From the NCBI RefSeq assembly GCF_054482595.1, contig NZ_CM137008.1: 64,000 nucleotides of DNA. One strand, given 5' to 3'. The notes below the pieces were generated by a model. That model saw only the letters and a list, made by a program, of their open reading frames with translations, did not search any database and was not told the DNA's origin. The position numbers and the translations under genes are program-made. Shown piece after piece: positions 4,405-61,258 of this stretch (its first letter is position 1; every line of letters starts with the position of its first letter).

Positions 4405-4474
4405 GTAGGCCGGATAAGACGCGTCAGCGTCGCATCCGGCAATCAGCATCCGGCAATCAGCATCCGGCAATCAC
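4405..4474. repeat. REP (repetitive extragenic palindrome) followed by three tandem copies of a 14-bp unit (catccggcaatcag) at 4433-4474
   Basis: gtaggccggataagacgcgtcagcgtcgcatccggc is a REP consensus; tandem units directly visible; located between convergent ypfG and tktB. Confidence 0.6.
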
Positions 4475-13957: not shown

Positions 13958-14063
13958 TCACCCTGTGTGACGTCGATTCGGGCGTCACGCTCTCTCATTT
14001 TTCATTTTACCTTCCGCGGAGGGTAGGGGGAGCTTTTACCTGAAATACGCCACGGAGGCGGGT

Positions 14064-14362: not shown

Positions 14363-15766
14363 ATGAATCAACAGGATATTGAACAGGTGGTGAAAGCGGT
14401 ACTGCTGAAAATGCAAAGCAGTGACACGCCGCCCGCCGCCGTTCATGAGATGGGCGTTTTCGCGTCCCTGGATGACGCTGTTGCGGCAGCCAAAATTGCC
14501 CAGCAAGGGTTAAAGAGCGTGGCAATGCGCCAGTTAGCCATTGCTGCCATTCGTGAAGCAGGCGAAAAACACGCCAGAGATTTAGCGGAACTTGCCGTCA
14601 GTGAAACCGGCATGGGGCGCGTTGAAGATAAATTTGCAAAAAACGTCGCTCAGGCGCGCGGTACACCAGGCGTTGAGTGCCTCTCTCCGCAAGTGCTGAC
14701 TGGCGACAACGGCCTGACCCTAATTGAAAACGCACCCTGGGGCGTGGTGGCTTCGGTGACGCCTTCCACTAACCCGGCGGCAACCGTAATTAATAACGCC
14801 ATCAGCCTGATTGCCGCGGGCAACAGCGTCATTTTTGCCCCGCATCCGGCGGCGAAAAAAGTCTCCCAGCGGGCGATCACGCTGCTCAACCAGGCGATTG
14901 TTGCCGCAGGCGGGCCGGAAAACTTACTGGTTACTGTGGCAAATCCGGATATCGAAACCGCGCAACGCTTGTTCAAGTTTCCGGGTATCGGCCTGCTGGT
15001 GGTGACTGGCGGCGAAGCGGTAGTAGAAGCGGCGCGTAAACACACCAATAAACGTCTGATTGCCGCAGGCGCTGGCAACCCGCCGGTAGTGGTGGATGAA
15101 ACCGCTGACCTCGCCCGTGCTGCTCAGTCCATCGTCAAAGGCGCGTCTTTCGATAACAACATCATTTGTGCCGACGAAAAGGTACTGATTGTTGTTGATA
15201 GCGTAGCCGATGAACTGATGCGTCTGATGGAAGGCCAGCACGCGGTGAAACTGACCGCAGAACAGGCGCAGCAGCTGCAACCGGTGTTGCTGAAAAATAT
15301 CGACGAGCGCGGAAAAGGTACTGTCAGCCGTGACTGGGTAGGTCGCGATGCAGGCAAAATCGCGGCGGCAATCGGCCTTAAAGTTCCGCAAGAAACGCGC
15401 CTGCTGTTTGTGGAAACCACCGCAGAACATCCGTTTGCCGTGACTGAACTGATGATGCCGGTGTTGCCCGTCGTGCGCGTCGCCAACGTGGCGGATGCCA
15501 TTGCGCTGGCGGTGAAACTGGAAGGCGGTTGCCACCACACGGCGGCAATGCACTCGCGCAATATCGAGAACATGAACCAGATGGCGAATGCCATTGATAC
15601 CAGCATTTTCGTTAAGAACGGACCGTGCATTGCCGGGCTGGGGCTGGGCGGGGAAGGCTGGACCACCATGACCATCACCACGCCAACCGGTGAAGGGGTA
15701 ACCAGCGCGCGGACGTTTGTCCGTCTGCGTCGCTGTGTATTAGTCGATGCGTTTCGCATTGTTTAA
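14363..15766 (+). CDS. eutE: EutE, CoA-acylating acetaldehyde dehydrogenase
   Basis: 467 aa; aldehyde dehydrogenase family with N-terminal encapsulation-peptide-like region. Confidence 0.95.
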   Translation: MNQQDIEQVVKAVLLKMQSSDTPPAAVHEMGVFASLDDAVAAAKIAQQGLKSVAMRQLAIAAIREAGEKHARDLAELAVSETGMGRVEDKFAKNVAQARGTPGVECLSPQVLTGDNGLTLIENAPWGVVASVTPSTNPAATVINNAISLIAAGNSVIFAPHPAAKKVSQRAITLLNQAIVAAGGPENLLVTVANPDIETAQRLFKFPGIGLLVVTGGEAVVEAARKHTNKRLIAAGAGNPPVVVDETADLARAAQSIVKGASFDNNIICADEKVLIVVDSVADELMRLMEGQHAVKLTAEQAQQLQPVLLKNIDERGKGTVSRDWVGRDAGKIAAAIGLKVPQETRLLFVETTAEHPFAVTELMMPVLPVVRVANVADAIALAVKLEGGCHHTAAMHSRNIENMNQMANAIDTSIFVKNGPCIAGLGLGGEGWTTMTITTPTGEGVTSARTFVRLRRCVLVDAFRIV

Positions 15767-15776
15767 GGAGTAACAG

Positions 15777-16613
15777 ATGGCGCACGACGAACAATGGCTC
15801 ACCCCACGTCTGCAAACGGCGGCAACGCTGTGTAACCAGACGCCCGCCGCGACGGAATCTCCGCTGTGGCTGGGGGTGGATCTGGGCACCTGCGATGTGG
15901 TGTCGATGGTTGTCGACCGCGACGGTCAGCCGGTGGCGGTATGCCTCGACTGGGCCGATGTGGTTCGCGACGGCATCGTCTGGGATTTCTTCGGCGCGGT
16001 CACCATTGTTCGTCGCCATCTTGACACGCTCGAGCAGCAATTCGGTCGTCGTTTTAGCCATGCGGCGACTTCATTTCCTCCAGGTACGGACCCGCGTATT
16101 TCCATCAACGTGCTGGAATCTGCCGGGCTGGAAGTGAGCCATGTGCTGGATGAGCCAACCGCAGTCGCGGATCTGCTGCAACTGGATAACGCAGGCGTAG
16201 TGGATATCGGCGGTGGCACTACCGGCATTGCCATCGTGAAAAAGGGCAAAGTGACGTACTCGGCGGATGAAGCCACCGGCGGACATCACATCTCTCTGAC
16301 TCTCGCCGGAAATCGCCGTATTCCGCTGGAAGAGGCAGAGCAGTACAAGCGCGGTCACGGTGAAGAGATTTGGCCTGCGGTGAAACCGGTGTACGAAAAA
16401 ATGGCGGACATTGTCGCCCGGCATATTGAAGGGCAGGGCATTACTGATTTATGGCTGGCGGGCGGCTCCTGTATGCAACCGGGCGTGGCAGAACTGTTTC
16501 GCAAACAATTCCCGGCGTTACAGGTGCATTTACCGCAGCACAGTTTGTTTATGACCCCGCTGGCGATCGCCAGTAGTGGGCGAGAGAAAGCGGAGGGGCT
16601 ATATGCAAAATGA
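15777..16613 (+). CDS. eutJ: EutJ, DnaK/actin-fold chaperone-like protein
   Basis: 278 aa; ATPase-fold motifs (LGVDLGTCDV, DIGGGTTGIA). Confidence 0.9.
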   Translation: MAHDEQWLTPRLQTAATLCNQTPAATESPLWLGVDLGTCDVVSMVVDRDGQPVAVCLDWADVVRDGIVWDFFGAVTIVRRHLDTLEQQFGRRFSHAATSFPPGTDPRISINVLESAGLEVSHVLDEPTAVADLLQLDNAGVVDIGGGTTGIAIVKKGKVTYSADEATGGHHISLTLAGNRRIPLEEAEQYKRGHGEEIWPAVKPVYEKMADIVARHIEGQGITDLWLAGGSCMQPGVAELFRKQFPALQVHLPQHSLFMTPLAIASSGREKAEGLYAK

Positions 16614-17790
16614 ATTGCAGACCGCGCTCTTTCAGGCGTTCGATACCCTGAATCTGCAACGGGTAAAAACATTTAGCGTTCCACCGGTGACGCTTTGCGG
16701 TCCGGGCTCGGTGAGCAGTTGCGGACAGCAAGCGCAAACGCGTGGGCTGAAACATCTGTTCGTGATGGCAGACAGCTTTTTGCATCAGGCAGGGATGACC
16801 GCCGGGCTGACGCGTAGCCTGGCCGTTAAAGGTATCGCCATGACGCTCTGGCCATGTCCGGTGGGCGAACCGTGCATTACCGACGTGTGTGCAGCCGTGG
16901 CGCAGTTGCGTGAGTCAGGTTGTGACGGGGTGATCGCATTTGGCGGCGGCTCGGTGCTGGATGCGGCGAAAGCCGTGGCGTTGCTGGTGACGAACCCGGA
17001 TAGCACGCTGGCAGAGATGTCAGAAACCAGCGTTCTGCAACCGCGCTTGCCGCTGATTGCCATTCCAACTACCGCCGGAACCGGCTCTGAAACCACCAAT
17101 GTAACGGTGATTATCGACGCGGTGAGCGGGCGCAAGCAGGTGTTAGCCCATGCCTCGCTGATGCCGGATGTGGCGATCCTCGACGCCGCATTGACCGAAG
17201 GTGTGCCGTCGCATGTCACGGCGATGACCGGCATTGATGCGTTAACCCATGCCATTGAAGCATACAGCGCCCTGAACGCTACACCGTTTACCGACAGTCT
17301 GGCGATTGGTGCCATTGCGATGATTGGCAAATCGCTGCCGAAAGCGGTGGGCTACGGTCACGACCTTGCCGCGCGCGAGAGCATGTTGCTGGCTTCATGT
17401 ATGGCGGGAATGGCGTTTTCCAGTGCGGGTCTTGGGTTGTGCCACGCGATGGCGCATCAGCCGGGCGCGGCGCTGCATATTCCGCACGGTCTGGCGAACG
17501 CTATGTTGCTGCCAACGGTGATGGAGTTTAACCGGATGGTATGTCGCGAACGCTTTAGTCAGATTGGTCGGGCACTGCGAACTAAAAAATCCGACGATCG
17601 TGACGCTATTAACGCGGTAAGTGAGCTGATTGCGGAAGTTGGGATTGGTAAACGACTGGGCGATGTTGGCGCGACATCTGCGCATTACGGTGCATGGGCG
17701 CAGGCCGCGCAGGAAGATATTTGTCTGCGCAGCAACCCGCGTACCGCCAGCCTGGAACAGATTGTCGGCCTGTACGCGGCGGCGCAATAA
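16603..17790 (+). CDS. eutG: EutG, iron-containing alcohol dehydrogenase
   Basis: 395 aa from ATG 16603 (MQNELQTALF...); overlaps the eutJ 3' end by 11 nt. Confidence 0.9.
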   Translation: MQNELQTALFQAFDTLNLQRVKTFSVPPVTLCGPGSVSSCGQQAQTRGLKHLFVMADSFLHQAGMTAGLTRSLAVKGIAMTLWPCPVGEPCITDVCAAVAQLRESGCDGVIAFGGGSVLDAAKAVALLVTNPDSTLAEMSETSVLQPRLPLIAIPTTAGTGSETTNVTVIIDAVSGRKQVLAHASLMPDVAILDAALTEGVPSHVTAMTGIDALTHAIEAYSALNATPFTDSLAIGAIAMIGKSLPKAVGYGHDLAARESMLLASCMAGMAFSSAGLGLCHAMAHQPGAALHIPHGLANAMLLPTVMEFNRMVCRERFSQIGRALRTKKSDDRDAINAVSELIAEVGIGKRLGDVGATSAHYGAWAQAAQEDICLRSNPRTASLEQIVGLYAAAQ

Positions 17791-17792
17791 AT

Positions 17793-17857
17793 GCCGCGTC
17801 TTATCCGGTCTGTGGGATTGCACATGTAGTGCGGATAAGGCTTCACGCAGCATCCGC
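17793..17857. repeat. Degenerate REP element(s) in the eutG-eutH intergenic spacer, inside the operon
   Basis: gtagtgcggataaggcttcacgcagcatccgc resembles the REP consensus gtaggccggataaggcgttcacgccgcatccggc; a second partial copy lies upstream. Confidence 0.5.
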
Positions 17858-17889
17858 TAATAAATAACAACTAACAGGGAGTAAAGGCG

Positions 17890-19116
17890 ATGGGAATTAA
17901 CGAAATCATCATGTACATCATGATGTTCTTTATGCTGATAGCTGCCGTAGACAGGATCCTGTCACAGTTCGGCGGTTCTGCTCGTTTCCTCGGTAAGTTC
18001 GGTAAAAGTATCGAAGGATCAGGCGGTCAGTTCGAAGAAGGCTTTATGGCAATGGGCGCTCTGGGTCTGGCGATGGTCGGTATGACCGCGCTGGCACCGG
18101 TACTGGCTCACGTACTCGGGCCGGTAATTATCCCGGTTTACGAAATGCTCGGCGCAAACCCGTCAATGTTCGCCGGAACGCTGCTGGCGTGCGATATGGG
18201 CGGCTTCTTCCTCGCCAAAGAGCTGGCGGGCGGCGACGTAGCAGCGTGGCTATACTCTGGGTTAATTCTCGGGTCGATGATGGGGCCAACGATTGTGTTT
18301 TCCATTCCGGTGGCGCTCGGCATTATCGAACCTTCTGACCGTCGTTATCTGGCGCTCGGCGTGCTGGCGGGCATTGTGACCATTCCGATTGGTTGTATCG
18401 CTGGTGGTCTGGTAGCTATGTACTCCGGTGTTCAGATCAACGGCCAGCCGGTGGAATTCACTTTCGCCCTGATCCTGATGAACATGATCCCGGTGATCAT
18501 TGTTGCGATTCTGGTGGCGCTGGGGCTGAAATTCATCCCGGAAAAAATGATCAACGGCTTCCAGATCTTCGCCAAATTCCTCGTTGCATTGATCACCCTC
18601 GGTCTTGCCGCTGCGGTAGTGAAATTCCTGCTTGGCTGGGAACTGATCCCCGGTCTGGATCCTATCTTTATGGCCCCTGGCGATAAACCCGGTGAGGTGA
18701 TGCGCGCCATTGAAGTTATCGGTTCTATCTCCTGCGTTCTGTTAGGGGCGTATCCGATGGTGCTGCTGCTGACCCGCTGGTTTGAAAAACCGCTGATGAG
18801 CGTCGGTAAGGTACTGAATATGAACAACATCGCGGCAGCCGGCATGGTGGCAACGCTTGCCAACAACATTCCGATGTTCGGCATGATGAAGCAGATGGAT
18901 ACCCGCGGCAAAGTGATCAACTGCGCCTTCGCCGTTTCCGCGGCTTTCGCCCTGGGCGACCACTTAGGCTTCGCCGCTGCCAACATGAACGCCATGATCT
19001 TCCCGATGATTGTCGGCAAATTGATCGGCGGCGTAACGGCGATTGGCGTGGCGATGATGCTGGTGCCAAAAGAAGACGCGACCACGGCTAAAACCGAAGC
19101 GGAGGCGCAATCGTGA
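17890..19116 (+). CDS. eutH: EutH, ethanolamine permease (multi-pass membrane protein)
   Basis: 408 aa, highly hydrophobic. Confidence 0.92.
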   Translation: MGINEIIMYIMMFFMLIAAVDRILSQFGGSARFLGKFGKSIEGSGGQFEEGFMAMGALGLAMVGMTALAPVLAHVLGPVIIPVYEMLGANPSMFAGTLLACDMGGFFLAKELAGGDVAAWLYSGLILGSMMGPTIVFSIPVALGIIEPSDRRYLALGVLAGIVTIPIGCIAGGLVAMYSGVQINGQPVEFTFALILMNMIPVIIVAILVALGLKFIPEKMINGFQIFAKFLVALITLGLAAAVVKFLLGWELIPGLDPIFMAPGDKPGEVMRAIEVIGSISCVLLGAYPMVLLLTRWFEKPLMSVGKVLNMNNIAAAGMVATLANNIPMFGMMKQMDTRGKVINCAFAVSAAFALGDHLGFAAANMNAMIFPMIVGKLIGGVTAIGVAMMLVPKEDATTAKTEAEAQS

Positions 19117-20516
19117 ACACTCGCCAGCTATTGAGCGTCGGTATCGATATCGGCACCACCACCACCCAGGTGATTTTCTCCCACCTGGAGCTGGTTAACC
19201 GTGCGGCGGTGTCGCAGGTGCCGCGCTACGAATTCATTAAACGCGAAATTAGCTGGCAAAGTCCGGTGTTCTTTACCCCTGTCGATAAACAGGGCGGTTT
19301 AAAAGAAGCGGAACTGAAAACCTTAATACTCGAGCAATATCAGGCTGCGGGTATTGAGCCGGAAAGCGTTGATTCTGGTGCCATCATCATCACCGGTGAA
19401 AGCGCGAAAACCCGCAATGCTCGCCCGGCGGTGATGGCGCTCTCTCAGTCGCTGGGCGATTTTGTCGTTGCCAGCGCCGGGCCGCACCTCGAATCCGTGA
19501 TCGCCGGTCACGGAGCCGGGGCACAAACCCTTTCTGAACAACGGCTGTGTCGGGTACTGAATATCGACATCGGCGGTGGCACCGCGAACTACGCCCTGTT
19601 CGATGCCGGAAAAATCAGCGGCACCGCCTGCCTCAACGTCGGTGGTCGCCTGCTGGAAACCGACAGCCAGGGGCGCGTGGTTTACGCTCATAAACCGGGG
19701 CAGATGATTGTGGATGAGTGCTTCGGTGCAGGCACTGACGTCCGTTCGCTGACCGGCGCGCAGCTGGTGCAGGTTACCCGGCGGATGGCAGAACTGATTG
19801 TCGAAGTGATTGACGGAACGCTCTCACCGCTCGCGCAGGCATTGATGCAAACCGGTTTGCTGCCCGCAGGTGTTACGCCCGAAATCATTACGCTTTCTGG
19901 CGGCGTGGGCGAATGTTATCGCCACCAGCCCGCCGACCCGTTCTGTTTTGCCGATATTGGCCCGCTGCTGGCAACGGCGCTGCATGACCATCCGCGCCTG
20001 CGTGAGATGAACGTACAGTTTCCGGCGCAAACCGTGCGCGCCACGGTGATTGGCGCGGGCGCGCATACCCTTTCGCTCTCTGGCAGCACAATCTGGCTTG
20101 AGGGCGTACAACTGCCGCTGCGCAATTTGCCGGTGGCGATCCCGATTGATGAAACGGATCTGGTGGGTGCCTGGCAACAGGCGCTGATTCAGCTGGATCT
20201 TGATCCCAAAACTGACGCGTACGTGCTGGCGCTTCCCGCCTCGCTGCCTGTGCGTTACGCCGCGGTACTGACGGTCATCAACGCGTTGGTCGATTTCGTC
20301 GCGCGTTTTCCGAATCCGCATCCCCTGCTGGTGGTGGCCGGGCAGGACTTTGGTAAAGCTCTGGGCATGTTGTTGCGCCCACAGCTACAACAACTCCCGT
20401 TGGCAGTCATTGACGAAGTGATTGTCCGCGCGGGGGACTATATCGACATTGGTACGCCTCTTTTTGGCGGATCGGTTGTGCCGGTGACGGTGAAATCACT
20501 CGCATTTCCTTCCTGA
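19113..20516 (+). CDS. eutA: EutA, reactivating factor for ethanolamine ammonia-lyase
   Basis: 467 aa; GTG start overlapping the eutH stop (GTGA). Confidence 0.9.
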   Translation: MNTRQLLSVGIDIGTTTTQVIFSHLELVNRAAVSQVPRYEFIKREISWQSPVFFTPVDKQGGLKEAELKTLILEQYQAAGIEPESVDSGAIIITGESAKTRNARPAVMALSQSLGDFVVASAGPHLESVIAGHGAGAQTLSEQRLCRVLNIDIGGGTANYALFDAGKISGTACLNVGGRLLETDSQGRVVYAHKPGQMIVDECFGAGTDVRSLTGAQLVQVTRRMAELIVEVIDGTLSPLAQALMQTGLLPAGVTPEIITLSGGVGECYRHQPADPFCFADIGPLLATALHDHPRLREMNVQFPAQTVRATVIGAGAHTLSLSGSTIWLEGVQLPLRNLPVAIPIDETDLVGAWQQALIQLDLDPKTDAYVLALPASLPVRYAAVLTVINALVDFVARFPNPHPLLVVAGQDFGKALGMLLRPQLQQLPLAVIDEVIVRAGDYIDIGTPLFGGSVVPVTVKSLAFPS

Positions 20517-20527
20517 GGGAACGACTT

Positions 20528-21889
20528 ATGAAACTAAAGACCACATTGTTCGGCAATGTATATCAGTTTAAGGATGTAAAAGAGGTGCTGGCTAAAGCCA
20601 ACGAACTGCGTTCGGGGGATGTGCTGGCGGGCGTCGCAGCGGCAAGCTCACAGGAGCGCGTGGCGGCAAAGCAGGTGTTGTCGGAAATGACCGTAGCGGA
20701 CATCCGCAATAATCCGGTGATTGCCTATGAAGATGACTGCGTGACGCGGCTGATTCAGGACGATGTTAACGAAACGGCCTACAACCAGATTAAAAACTGG
20801 AGCATCAGCGAACTGCGTGAGTATGTGCTGAGCGATGAAACCAGCGTGGACGACATTGCCTTTACCCGCAAAGGGCTGACCTCGGAAGTGGTCGCGGCGG
20901 TAGCGAAGATTTGCTCCAACGCGGACCTGATCTACGGCGCGAAGAAAATGCCGGTAATCAAAAAGGCCAATACCACCATCGGTATTCCGGGCACCTTCAG
21001 CGCCCGTTTGCAGCCAAATGACACCCGTGACGACGTGCAAAGTATCGCCGCGCAAATCTACGAAGGGCTTTCCTTCGGGGTGGGCGATGCGGTGATCGGC
21101 GTCAACCCGGTAACTGACGACGTGGAAAACTTAAGCCGCGTGCTGGACACCATCTATGGCGTGATCGACAAATTCAACATCCCAACTCAGGGCTGCGTAC
21201 TGGCGCACGTCACCACCCAGATCGAAGCGATTCGTCGTGGCGCACCAGGCGGGCTGATTTTCCAGAGTATCTGTGGCAGTGAAAAAGGGCTGAAAGAGTT
21301 TGGCGTGGAACTGGCGATGCTCGACGAAGCGCGCGCAGTGGGTGCAGAGTTCAACCGTATCGCCGGGGAAAACTGCCTCTACTTCGAAACCGGACAAGGC
21401 TCTGCGCTGTCGGCGGGTGCCAACTACGGCGCAGACCAGGTGACCATGGAAGCGCGTAACTACGGGCTGGCGCGTCATTACGATCCGTTTATCGTCAACA
21501 CCGTGGTCGGCTTTATTGGGCCGGAGTATCTCTACAATGACCGCCAGATTATTCGTGCGGGCTTAGAAGATCACTTTATGGGTAAGCTGAGCGGCATCTC
21601 TATGGGCTGTGACTGCTGCTACACCAACCACGCTGACGCTGACCAGAACCTCAACGAAAACCTGATGATCCTGCTCGCCACCGCAGGCTGCAACTACATC
21701 ATGGGGATGCCGCTGGGCGATGACATCATGCTCAACTACCAGACCACGGCCTTCCACGACACCGCCACTGTGCGTCAGTTACTCAACCTGCGCCCGTCAC
21801 CGGAGTTTGAACGCTGGCTGGAAAGTATGGGCATTATGGCAAACGGTCGCCTGACCAAACGGGCGGGCGATCCGTCACTGTTCTTCTGA
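20528..21889 (+). CDS. eutB: EutB, ethanolamine ammonia-lyase large subunit
   Basis: 453 aa; starts 11 bp after the eutA stop. Confidence 0.95.
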   Translation: MKLKTTLFGNVYQFKDVKEVLAKANELRSGDVLAGVAAASSQERVAAKQVLSEMTVADIRNNPVIAYEDDCVTRLIQDDVNETAYNQIKNWSISELREYVLSDETSVDDIAFTRKGLTSEVVAAVAKICSNADLIYGAKKMPVIKKANTTIGIPGTFSARLQPNDTRDDVQSIAAQIYEGLSFGVGDAVIGVNPVTDDVENLSRVLDTIYGVIDKFNIPTQGCVLAHVTTQIEAIRRGAPGGLIFQSICGSEKGLKEFGVELAMLDEARAVGAEFNRIAGENCLYFETGQGSALSAGANYGADQVTMEARNYGLARHYDPFIVNTVVGFIGPEYLYNDRQIIRAGLEDHFMGKLSGISMGCDCCYTNHADADQNLNENLMILLATAGCNYIMGMPLGDDIMLNYQTTAFHDTATVRQLLNLRPSPEFERWLESMGIMANGRLTKRAGDPSLFF

Positions 21890-24024: not shown

Positions 24025-25077
24025 ATGAAAAAGACCCGTACAGCCAATTTGCACCATCTTTATCATGAACCCTTACCCGAAAACCTGAAGCTCACGCCGA
24101 AGGTCGAAGTGGATAATGTTCATCAACGACAGACAACGGATGTCTATGAACATGCTTTGACGATTACCGCCTGGCAGCAGATTTACGATCAGCTGCATCC
24201 GGGCAAGTTTCATGGTGAATTTACGGAAATTCTACTCGATGATATTCAGGTTTTTCGTGAATACACCGGTCTGGCGCTGCGTCAGTCGTGTCTGGTCTGG
24301 CCGAACTCGTTCTGGTTTGGCATTCCGGCGACGCGCGGTGAGCAGGGATTTATCGGTTCGCAATGTCTGGGAAGCGCAGAAATAGCGACGCGCCCTGGTG
24401 GAACCGAGTTTGAATTAAGTACGCCGGACGATTACACGATCCTGGGCGTAGTGCTTTCTGAAGATGTCATCACCCGGCAGGCTAACTTTTTGCATAATCC
24501 GGATCGGGTATTACATATGTTGCGTAGCCAGTCGGCGCTGGAAGTGAAAGAGCAGCATAAAGCCGCGCTGTGGGGCTTTGTCCAACAGGCGCTGGCGACG
24601 TTTTGCGAGAACCCGGAAAATCTTCATCAGCCTGCAGTGCGAAAAGTGCTGGGGGATAATTTGCTAATGGCGATGGGGGCGATGCTGGAAGAAGCGCAGC
24701 CAATGGTGACGGCGGAAAGCATCAGTCATCAGAGTTACCGTCGGTTGCTTTCCCGCGCCCGTGAATATGTGCTGGAAAACATGTCCGAACCGGTGACGGT
24801 GCTGGACTTGTGTAATCAACTGCATGTCAGCCGCCGCACGCTACAAAACGCGTTTCACGCTATTTTAGGAATTGGCCCGAACGCGTGGCTGAAACGCATT
24901 CGCCTGAACGCCGTACGCCGCGAACTGATAAGCCCGTGGTCGCAAAGCACAACGGTAAAAGACGCCGCCATGCAGTGGGGATTCTGGCATCTGGGGCAAT
25001 TTGCCACGGATTACCAGCAGCTGTTTGCCGAGAAGCCGTCGTTGACGTTGCATCAGCGGATGCGGGAATGGGGGTGA
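24025..25077 (+). CDS. eutR: EutR, AraC-family activator of the eut operon
   Basis: 350 aa; C-terminal AraC-type HTH; last gene of the eut cluster. Confidence 0.92.
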
Positions 25078-39160: not shown

Positions 39161-39181
39161 TAGGTTGAGTGAATGTTAAAC

Positions 39182-39214
39182 GCCCGGAGGCGCTTCCCGC
39201 GATCCGGGCTTTTT
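39182..39214 (+). terminator. Terminator-like hairpin between cysA and cysM
   Basis: cccgga-N14-tccggg followed by CTTTTT. Confidence 0.45.
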
Positions 39215-39234
39215 AATGGCAAGGTTTGTAACCT

Positions 39235-39270
39235 GTAGGCCTGATAAGACGCGCAAGCGTCGCATCAGGC
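39235..39270. repeat. REP element between cysA and cysM
   Basis: gtaggcctgataagacgcgcaagcgtcgcatcaggc. Confidence 0.55.
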
Positions 39271-39293
39271 AACACCACGTATGGACAGAGATC

Positions 39294-61118: not shown

Positions 61119-61124
61119 TTGAAT

Positions 61125-61236
<112 letters not shown>

Positions 61237-61258
61237 TGTGCTCCATTGGCGAATGTGT

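Follow-up and report, generated by a model that had tools for sequence, protein, structure and literature searches.

The eut operon is uninterrupted in the window, by which we mean the whole 64-kb stretch of DNA that was analysed, and runs on the + strand. Among the genes recognised by NCBIfam equivalog models are eutE (14363-15766), eutJ (15777-16613), eutH (17890-19116), eutA (19113-20516) and, at the distal end of the operon, the activator gene eutR (24025-25077), as well as eutB, eutC, eutL and the upstream gene maeB. Between eutJ and eutH, eutG occupies an open reading frame (ORF) at 16576-17790 (+) that matches the EutG equivalog NF011998 with 890 bits and ends with a TAA stop codon at 17788-17790. 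The gene order is that of K-12, save for the CPZ-55 prophage, which splits the K-12 eut operon and is absent from the window. Neighbouring genes of the operon mostly overlap or are separated by 45 nt or less, the exceptions being the eutM-eutN gap of 106 nt and the eutG-eutH spacer of 99 bp (17791-17889, +), which reads ATGCCGCGTCTTATCCGGTCTGT GGGATTGCACAT GTAGTGCGGATAAGGCTTCACGCAGCATCCGCT AATAAATAACAACTAACAGGGAGTAAAGGCG. The distal part of this spacer is the A/U-rich eutH leader (17859-17889, +), which is not REP-derived; its Shine-Dalgarno sequence, AGGGAG (17876-17881), precedes the ATG at 17890 by 8 nt. All 31 columns of the leader are invariant in an alignment of five Escherichia sequences (four E. 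coli alleles and one from E. whittamii), and the leader matches the entire spacer of genera whose eutG-eutH junction is REP-free. Three overlapping ORFs, at 17395-17853 (-), 17630-17860 (+) and 17685-17870 (-), were set aside, since the spacer they run across is variable in length and content among strains.

The original prediction placed a single degenerate REP inside this polycistronic operon, between eutG and eutH at 17793-17857. Both a covariance model and orthologous alignment bear out a degenerate REP at this site, and the interval is exactly the REP-derived portion of the spacer; it is wholly extragenic and starts 3 nt downstream of the eutG stop codon. The element is REP-derived and degenerate as proposed, but it is the remains of a z2-y pair and not a single unit. 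As a 14-nt REP tail motif, searched with 3 mismatches, was only weakly enriched in the window (9 occurrences against 3.9 expected, about 2-fold), stronger evidence was sought in the alignment of orthologous spacers and in a y-type covariance model, which combined intact units from other strains with the published 32-mer of the TnpA-REP co-crystal (PMC3479197). Searched against both strands of the whole window, the model matched 17826-17858 (+) with 30.9 bits (E ~4e-6), compared to 56-63 bits for intact y units and 63.3 bits for a perfect y REP elsewhere in the window (61147-61180). Further matches at 4405-4440, 39235-39270 and 61199-61234 bring to four the other REPs in the 64 kb, as expected of a dispersed repeat. 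The 115-116-bp spacers of E. coli alleles with one unit align base for base with the window spacer. An Rfam scan of 17500-18200 at E<=10 returned no family, the sole match being a meaningless snoRNA. As judged from the alignment and the model, it is near certain that the element is a relic of REP178, a z2-y pair of palindromic units.

The first member of the pair, a z2-type remnant (17793-17813, - strand, and thus inverted, or 'iREP', on the mRNA strand), was delimited by alignment with the intact 115/116-bp alleles and keeps just its 3' arm, GCCGCGTCTTATCCGGTCTGT. Its 5' arm was lost through a 16-nt deletion between TGCCG direct repeats, with the junction at ~17792-17797. Compared to the closest intact allele, the 115-bp spacer of strain Res13-Sevr-PER07-33, the missing nucleotides comprise one TGCCG copy and the 11 nt between the copies. 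MAFFT set the gap within the end of the eutG coding sequence, the biologically consistent position being after ATGCCG; the two placements are equivalent because of the direct repeat. A loss bounded in this way bears the signature of slippage. The head of the z2 unit is gone as well, CTAC (GTAG on the - strand) having become CTGT (in wider context, CCTAC to TCTGT), so that the complete palindrome of ~37 nt with a GTAG/CTAC head that defines the z2 type is no longer present at 17793-17813; the y-type model, run on the window, gave no match at these positions either. By homology, the left unit is best described as a z2 relic and not as a functional unit.

A linker of 12 nt, GGGATTGCACAT (17814-17825), identical to that of the K-12 REP178 units, lies between the two heads of the pair and is followed by the degenerate y-type REP, GTAGTGCGGATAAGGC-TTCACGCAGCATCCGCT (17826-17858, +). 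REPs need a conserved GTAG 5' of the hairpin (PMC3479197, PMC8266576), and this tetranucleotide is intact in the y unit (17826-17829), directly 5' of its hairpin. A y unit is an imperfect palindrome of ~35 nt, built of a lower stem, an AA/GC bulge, an upper stem and a loop, in which T11 and G32 are conserved. The unit in the window further retains a 6-bp lower stem along with T11, the A12A13 bulge, C27 and G32, defining positions of y units that are important for TnpA-REP according to structural and SELEX work (PMC3479197, PMC8266576). Its upper stem has shrunk from 4 to 2 pairs through a 1-nt deletion and a C-to-A change, the outermost pair has been lost, and 3 of the 11 pairs of the covariance model are non-canonical. 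Arrays of y and z2 units are known by the older name BIME-2; the window preserves the y/z2 order and the linker of such arrays, but its z2 unit is truncated where orthologous alleles show the full alternating inverse pattern, and with less than one unit it lacks the tandem amplification that marks a BIME.

The degenerate y unit is not peculiar to the truncated allele. It also occupies the eutH-proximal position in 1-, 2- and 3-unit arrays with intact z2 units, found in Escherichia sp. E1V33 as well as in other E. coli, and we infer an array of this kind to be the source of the window allele. The degenerate y unit would accordingly be an older variant, and the window allele the probable product of array contraction and then the 16-nt deletion. 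Set against the closest relative that is intact, the 67 nt of the REP part show 4 substitutions and there are two indels, while the flanking coding sequence differs by ~1% over 960 nt; the divergence of the REP part is consistent with an absence of purifying selection, with the counts being small.

In K-12 the orthologue of the element already has a catalogue entry, REP178 ('Tandem', eutG/eutH, 2568140-2568322; bioRxiv 10.64898/2026.03.23.713779, supplementary tables), and only antisense Rho-binding peaks are listed at or near it in the same source. The copy of NC_000913.3 consulted has no REP features annotated, and literature searches that paired REP with eutG/eutH or the eut operon yielded nothing specific. 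The notion that an intra-operon REP is unusual does not survive comparison with these sources, since ~40% of annotated E. coli REP elements are located between tandem genes (bioRxiv 10.64898/2026.03.23.713779) and REPs were first described as an intercistronic operon element, as the title of Higgins (1982) cited in PMC12306157 and PMC3479197 has it. The location is thus ordinary, and the element is a catalogued one, encountered here as a degenerate allele. In K-12 the 216-bp spacer consists of two copies of a ~100-bp unit, each composed of a z2-type REP (GCCGGATGCGACGCTTGCCGCGTCTTATCCAGCCTAC), the linker GGGATTGCACAT and a y-type REP (GTAGGGCGGATAAGGCGTTCACGCCGCATCCGCC). The locus, the flanks, the stop-proximal position, the linker and the z2-then-y order on the mRNA strand are common to both alleles; K-12 has two intact z2-y units in 216 bp within an operon split by CPZ-55, whereas the window, without the prophage, has less than one unit in 99 bp, with a truncated z2 and a degenerate y.

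The eutG-eutH junction is present in 5,410 of 5,426 complete E. coli genomes. To judge from a quantile sample of 60 among the 5,411 matching records, the spacer behaves like a variable-number repeat with a period of ~100 bp. One unit (116 bp) was found in 21 of the 60 genomes (35%), two units (216 bp) in 22 (37%), and three (316 bp), four (416 bp) and five units (515 bp) in 3, 1 and 5 genomes (15% for the three classes). The truncated 99-bp allele of the window accounted for 4 genomes (~6%) and a 169-bp spacer with an unrelated dispersed repeat for 3 (~5%); the remaining genome fell into no spacer class, owing to a deletion that removes the 3' end of eutG and ends inside a REP. A diagnostic 81-nt query retrieved the truncated allele at >=99% identity from 336 genomes, mostly O157:H7/O55:H7, and in ~41 further genomes the degenerate y unit is paired with a z2 unit that is intact. 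The flanks in the window are identical to those of strain XH990 and 98.9% identical to those of O157:H7, indicating that the truncated allele occurs on at least two flanking haplotypes. Within the O157:H7 lineage the allele is fixed and invariant, an invariance that is equally expected from recent common ancestry.

We then compared 51 loci, obtained with EutH as query from a collection with one genome per species. Species-level representatives of Escherichia have 1 to 6 units at the eutG-eutH site, and in Salmonella enterica subsp. diarizonae a single z2-like unit sits at the same place and points the same way. In many Citrobacter and Pseudocitrobacter a y-like unit precedes a z-like one, and the units of Klebsiella are of its own GTAGCCCGGG type. 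REP-free spacers of 27-32 nt, ending in ...ATGACAGGGAGTGAAGGCT, occur in several Citrobacter (27 nt) and in Yokenella and one Pluralibacter (32 nt); those of Buttiauxella, Hafnia, Entomohabitans, Morganella and P. gergoviae, also REP-free, measure 34-48 nt. Because the outgroups are REP-free, REP colonisation of this site is a derived state. When the y-type model was run over 41 of the 51 loci (148 kb), its matches were confined to the eutG-eutH spacer, and in the loci compared REPs invariably lay downstream of the eutG stop codon and upstream of the conserved eutH leader. The question of whether the REP is E. coli-specific, raised with the original prediction, is therefore answered in the negative: the y/z2 array is Escherichia-wide, and other REP arrangements or types are found at this site in Salmonella, Citrobacter, Pseudocitrobacter and Klebsiella. 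From these comparisons the eutG-eutH site appears to be a permissive hot spot that has been used repeatedly, in an operon that evidently works without any REP. The occurrence of REPs at this site in at least five genera could also mean that a structured element is selected for here, and not just that the site is permissive.

A lack of stable secondary structure on folding had been named as grounds for abandoning a regulatory role, and the window allele indeed folds no better than dinucleotide shuffles of itself, with minimum free energies (MFE) of -25.1 kcal/mol for the whole spacer (z -0.18), -20.8 kcal/mol for the 65-nt element (z -0.48) and -21.9 kcal/mol for the 67-nt core (z -0.76). The intact alleles gave -37.6 kcal/mol (z -3.5) and -46.1 kcal/mol (z -4.4) for the single units of the O145 and L009 alleles, respectively, and -89.6 kcal/mol (z -4.1) for the two units of K-12. 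The z2 hairpin falls from -22.8 kcal/mol when intact to -3.9 for the remnant alone, and the y hairpin from -20.9 kcal/mol to -11.0 in the window; about half of the folding energy is lost in the window allele. The predicted dominant RNA structure, based on an inverted repeat and on pair probabilities, is a composite hairpin (17800-17839, +) in which CUUAUCCG of the z2 remnant (17800-17807) pairs with CGGAUAAG of the y unit (17832-17839). This helix has a predicted pair probability of ~0.8, compared to 0.19 for the competing self-hairpin of the y unit, and the A/U-rich leader after it is predicted to be unpaired (probability 0.85 at 17858-17875). By these models the exceptional stability of the REP has been lost, while a moderate hairpin of ~-21 kcal/mol remains. 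The hairpin does not have the make-up of a Rho-independent terminator, as the next sequence is UAAUAAAUAACAAC and not a U-run, and a scan of 17000-18600 for intrinsic terminators and sigma-70-like promoters found none in the spacer and one coding palindrome in eutH.

Taken together, these results make it probable that the window carries a decaying and near-neutral REP178 relic, left at a permissive site as REPs proliferated and arrays contracted, with the near-neutrality being less certain than the identity of the relic. According to this scenario, a z2-y pair inserted directly past the eutG stop codon, upstream of the conserved translation-initiation leader of eutH, and would owe its presence to REP proliferation or array contraction rather than to selection for eut regulation. 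The sole remaining unit would then have been worn down as the z2 5' arm was removed by the 16-nt slippage, the z2 head was lost and the y upper stem was weakened. The eut mRNA could still form a moderate hairpin of ~-21 kcal/mol that starts 3 nt past the eutG stop codon, with an unpaired A/U-rich stretch behind it, and the residual effects of this hairpin may include some protection of the upstream eutS-eutG segment from 3' exonucleases and a slight pause or slight damping of read-through, all of them weak and not amounting to a dedicated switch for eutH or eutBC. Any effect on the eut operon is most likely weak at most. The proposal that the element differentially regulates the genes downstream is weakened for three reasons: (i) the modelled fold is no better than that of shuffles, with intact alleles reaching z -3.5 to -4.4; (ii) the site seems to tolerate anything from half a unit to six units, another repeat and, in related genera, the absence of any REP; (iii) no sequence resembling a terminator or a promoter was detected. 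Several points speak against near-neutrality. A predicted hairpin of -21 kcal/mol is not negligible, and its distance of 3 nt from the stop codon lies within the <=15 nt reported for REPs that down-regulate translation (Liang et al., 2015, as described in PMC12306157). Tandem gene pairs with a REP are on average expressed with an upstream bias, REPs have settled at this site in at least five genera, and the allele is fixed in the O157:H7 lineage, which common descent would explain equally well.

A working intercistronic regulator, in which the hairpin blocks 3'-to-5' exonucleases and/or partly terminates transcription, is in our view rather unlikely. It would entail cleavage in the A/U-rich leader and stabilisation of eutS-eutG, with upstream transcript exceeding that of the downstream genes (eutH, eutA, eutBC, eutLK and eutR). 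REP325, an array of 12 units between yjdM and yjdN, offers a precedent with the same alternating inverted y/z2 units between co-oriented genes of one operon, and it is by experiment both a stabiliser and a partial Rho-dependent terminator within yjdMN; the window allele, by contrast, is a sub-unit relic and not an array. Later mRNA-stability work on the intercistronic REPs of hisJ-hisQ and malE-malF reportedly measured effects on the upstream gene. There, too, REP hairpins lie in a polycistronic transcript just past the upstream cistron, where the proposal was that they shield upstream mRNA from 3' exonucleases, but those REPs are intact, whereas both window units are damaged. Tandem gene pairs with a REP show expression that is biased towards the upstream gene on average, the upstream/downstream ratio being raised, but the effect scales with REP sequence conservation and is highly variable, and genome-wide REPs show no association with prolonged half-lives (bioRxiv 10.64898/2026.03.23.713779). 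At the locus itself, the predicted helix with its pair probability of ~0.8, the unpaired A/U-rich stretch that follows and the occupation of the site by REPs in many genera favour a regulator; the shuffle-like fold, the damage to both palindromic units and the lack of a U-run terminator argue against it, as do the distance of just 31 nt from the element to the eutH start codon, which leaves little untranslated RNA for Rho, the freely polymorphic copy number and the existence of relatives without a REP.

It is quite unlikely that the number and integrity of REP units at the eutG-eutH site, ranging from the crippled half-unit of the window and of O157:H7/O55:H7 to six units, form an evolvable rheostat that governs how much read-through reaches the distal operon. 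If they did, the gain of the EutR positive-feedback loop could depend on the array, eutR being the gene that ends the distal half, and the fixation of a near-null allele in the enterohaemorrhagic lineage would imply a faster or stronger ethanolamine induction.

Very unlikely, too, is an effect at the stop codon, whereby structure past the end of eutG stalls terminating ribosomes and lowers EutG output via trans-translation. REPs at <=15 nt from a stop codon reportedly lower translation of the upstream gene, as for nrdAB (Liang et al., 2015, according to PMC12306157), and the window resembles these cases in that its structured region begins 3 nt past the TAA; intact alleles place the -22.8 kcal/mol z2 hairpin at precisely that stop-proximal position. 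Unlike in those REPs, however, the stop-proximal palindrome is the very one that the 16-nt deletion destroyed in the window allele (-3.9 kcal/mol), the helix replacing it requires sequence 40 nt downstream, and the operon works without such a structure in REP-free relatives.

We regard as highly improbable a role at the level of DNA, with the element acting as a site for DNA gyrase, DNA polymerase I or IHF, or as a live TnpA-REP/RAYT substrate that drives rearrangement. BIMEs have been reported as gyrase, Pol I and IHF sites (for gyrase, Espeli and Boccard, 1997, as represented in papers citing it), arrays expand and contract at this locus, with a REP-bounded eutG deletion in one strain, and the positions that matter for TnpA-REP binding and cleavage (GTAG, T11, A12A13, C27 and G32) persist in the y unit. 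However, TnpA-REP no longer binds once the upper stem-loop has been ablated, and the window upper stem is down to 2 pairs; the partner z2 unit is without its head motif and half its palindrome, and the y/z2 pair typical of intact arrays at the locus is no longer intact. The element resembles a REPIN, a RAYT-mobilised inverted REP pair, in having two inverted REP units whose heads face each other over a short linker. Both units of a REPIN have to be functional, however, and the left unit of the window has lost half its palindrome and its GTAG, making the element at best a dead REPIN. Finally, a chance GC-rich palindrome unrelated to REPs, which the merely ~2-fold enrichment of the 14-mer tail motif and the near-zero z-score of the fold might have suggested, has virtually no probability left, being refuted by the unambiguous homology of the element to intact REP178-type units in orthologous E. 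coli spacers, by the covariance model match (E ~4e-6) and by the identical degenerate y unit inside multi-unit arrays of other strains.

As a worn-out copy of a catalogued repeat, the decaying REP178 relic is a single feature of little import, and the main worth of the window allele is to mark one end of an allelic series. The eutG-eutH junction provides this series naturally, with zero, half or 1 to 6 units or another repeat, and it does so in a conserved and well-studied operon, which makes it a handy test bed for the unsettled question of what intercistronic REPs do. In one strain, a REP marks the edge of the deletion that truncates eutG. REP arrays at this junction can be mis-annotated as genes, and the variable spacer constitutes a ready-made marker for strain typing.

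The eut operon of the window is intact, as eutA and eutB lie next to each other with a gap of 11 nt (compared region 19113-21889), whereas in K-12 MG1655 the two genes are separated by the 6.8-kb cryptic prophage CPZ-55 (locus L001, 3692-10481), which is absent from this position in the window. The sole long gap in this operon besides the eutG-eutH spacer is that between eutM and eutN (13958-14063), and its predicted fold (-41.9 kcal/mol; z -3.19) is much more structured than that of the decayed REP pair (the REP relic) between eutG and eutH. A 10-pair hairpin (13965-13990) immediately follows the eutM stop codon and is itself followed by a T-rich tail, a combination that was scored as terminator-like in the terminator scan. 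This structure is unrelated to REPs. The eutM-eutN structure is a better candidate than the REP relic for intra-operon attenuation or stabilisation, and might, for example, set the EutM:EutN stoichiometry. The same scan returned terminator-like signals on both strands within eutH, at a near-perfect palindrome, CATCATGTACATCATGATG (17907-17925), that spans codons 6-12 and encodes part of the peptide ...IMYIMM...; this palindrome is probably a side effect of the many Met and Ile codons for the N-terminus.

Just 5' of the eutH ribosome-binding site, a small hairpin (GCCTG-N4-5-CAGGC) is shared by the eutG-eutH spacers without REPs (45-48 nt) of Morganella, Buttiauxella, Pluralibacter gergoviae and Klebsiella sp. 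BIGb0407 (eut loci L034-L037, L041-L045, L047, L053 and L054). This hairpin may represent an ancestral stem-loop between the two cistrons. In E. coli CE2050 (L006, 292-460) the REPs are replaced at the same site by a different, GC-rich dispersed repeat (partial sequence ...CCCCTTTGGGGAGAGGGTTAGGGTGAGGGG...CCCTCACCCC...), which occupies the eutG-eutH site in ∼5% of E. coli genomes and for which the median number of places in an E. coli genome is 15. Hence members of two or more repeat families have inserted at this site.

Escherichia sp. MOD1-EC7003 carries a 474-bp array (L050, 1026-1500) in which four of the five y units share a compensated stem change (GGGTGGAT...ATCCACC in place of GGGCGGAT...ATCCGCC), a pattern that agrees with a variant unit having been amplified while its hairpin was retained. 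In E. coli MRSN346647 (L007, 1270-1600) the 3' end of eutG is deleted, and the junction, GCGATGGCGCATC|CGCCAGTGG, places the remaining coding sequence of eutG directly against the 3' arm of a y REP, which thereby forms the boundary of a gene-inactivating deletion; the truncated eutG is annotated as a pseudogene in RefSeq. Automatic annotation of E. coli Eco_24-2013 (L060, 554-712) predicted a minus-strand gene for a 'hypothetical protein' of 52 aa that lies wholly within a 3-unit REP array, a gene call that is almost certainly spurious.

Elsewhere in the window, the stretch 4405-4472 contains a REP, GTAGGCCGGATAAGACGCGTCAGCGTCGCATCCGGC, and, directly behind it, a 14-nt unit, GCATCCGGCAATCA, that is repeated three times in tandem and stems from the 3' arm of that REP. 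A cluster of ∼3 palindromic units lies at 61120-61240 and includes a perfect y REP (61147-61180), and a z-type REP (39235-39270, within 39180-39272) is located just 3' of a hairpin and T-run (∼39180-39215) that together resemble a terminator.
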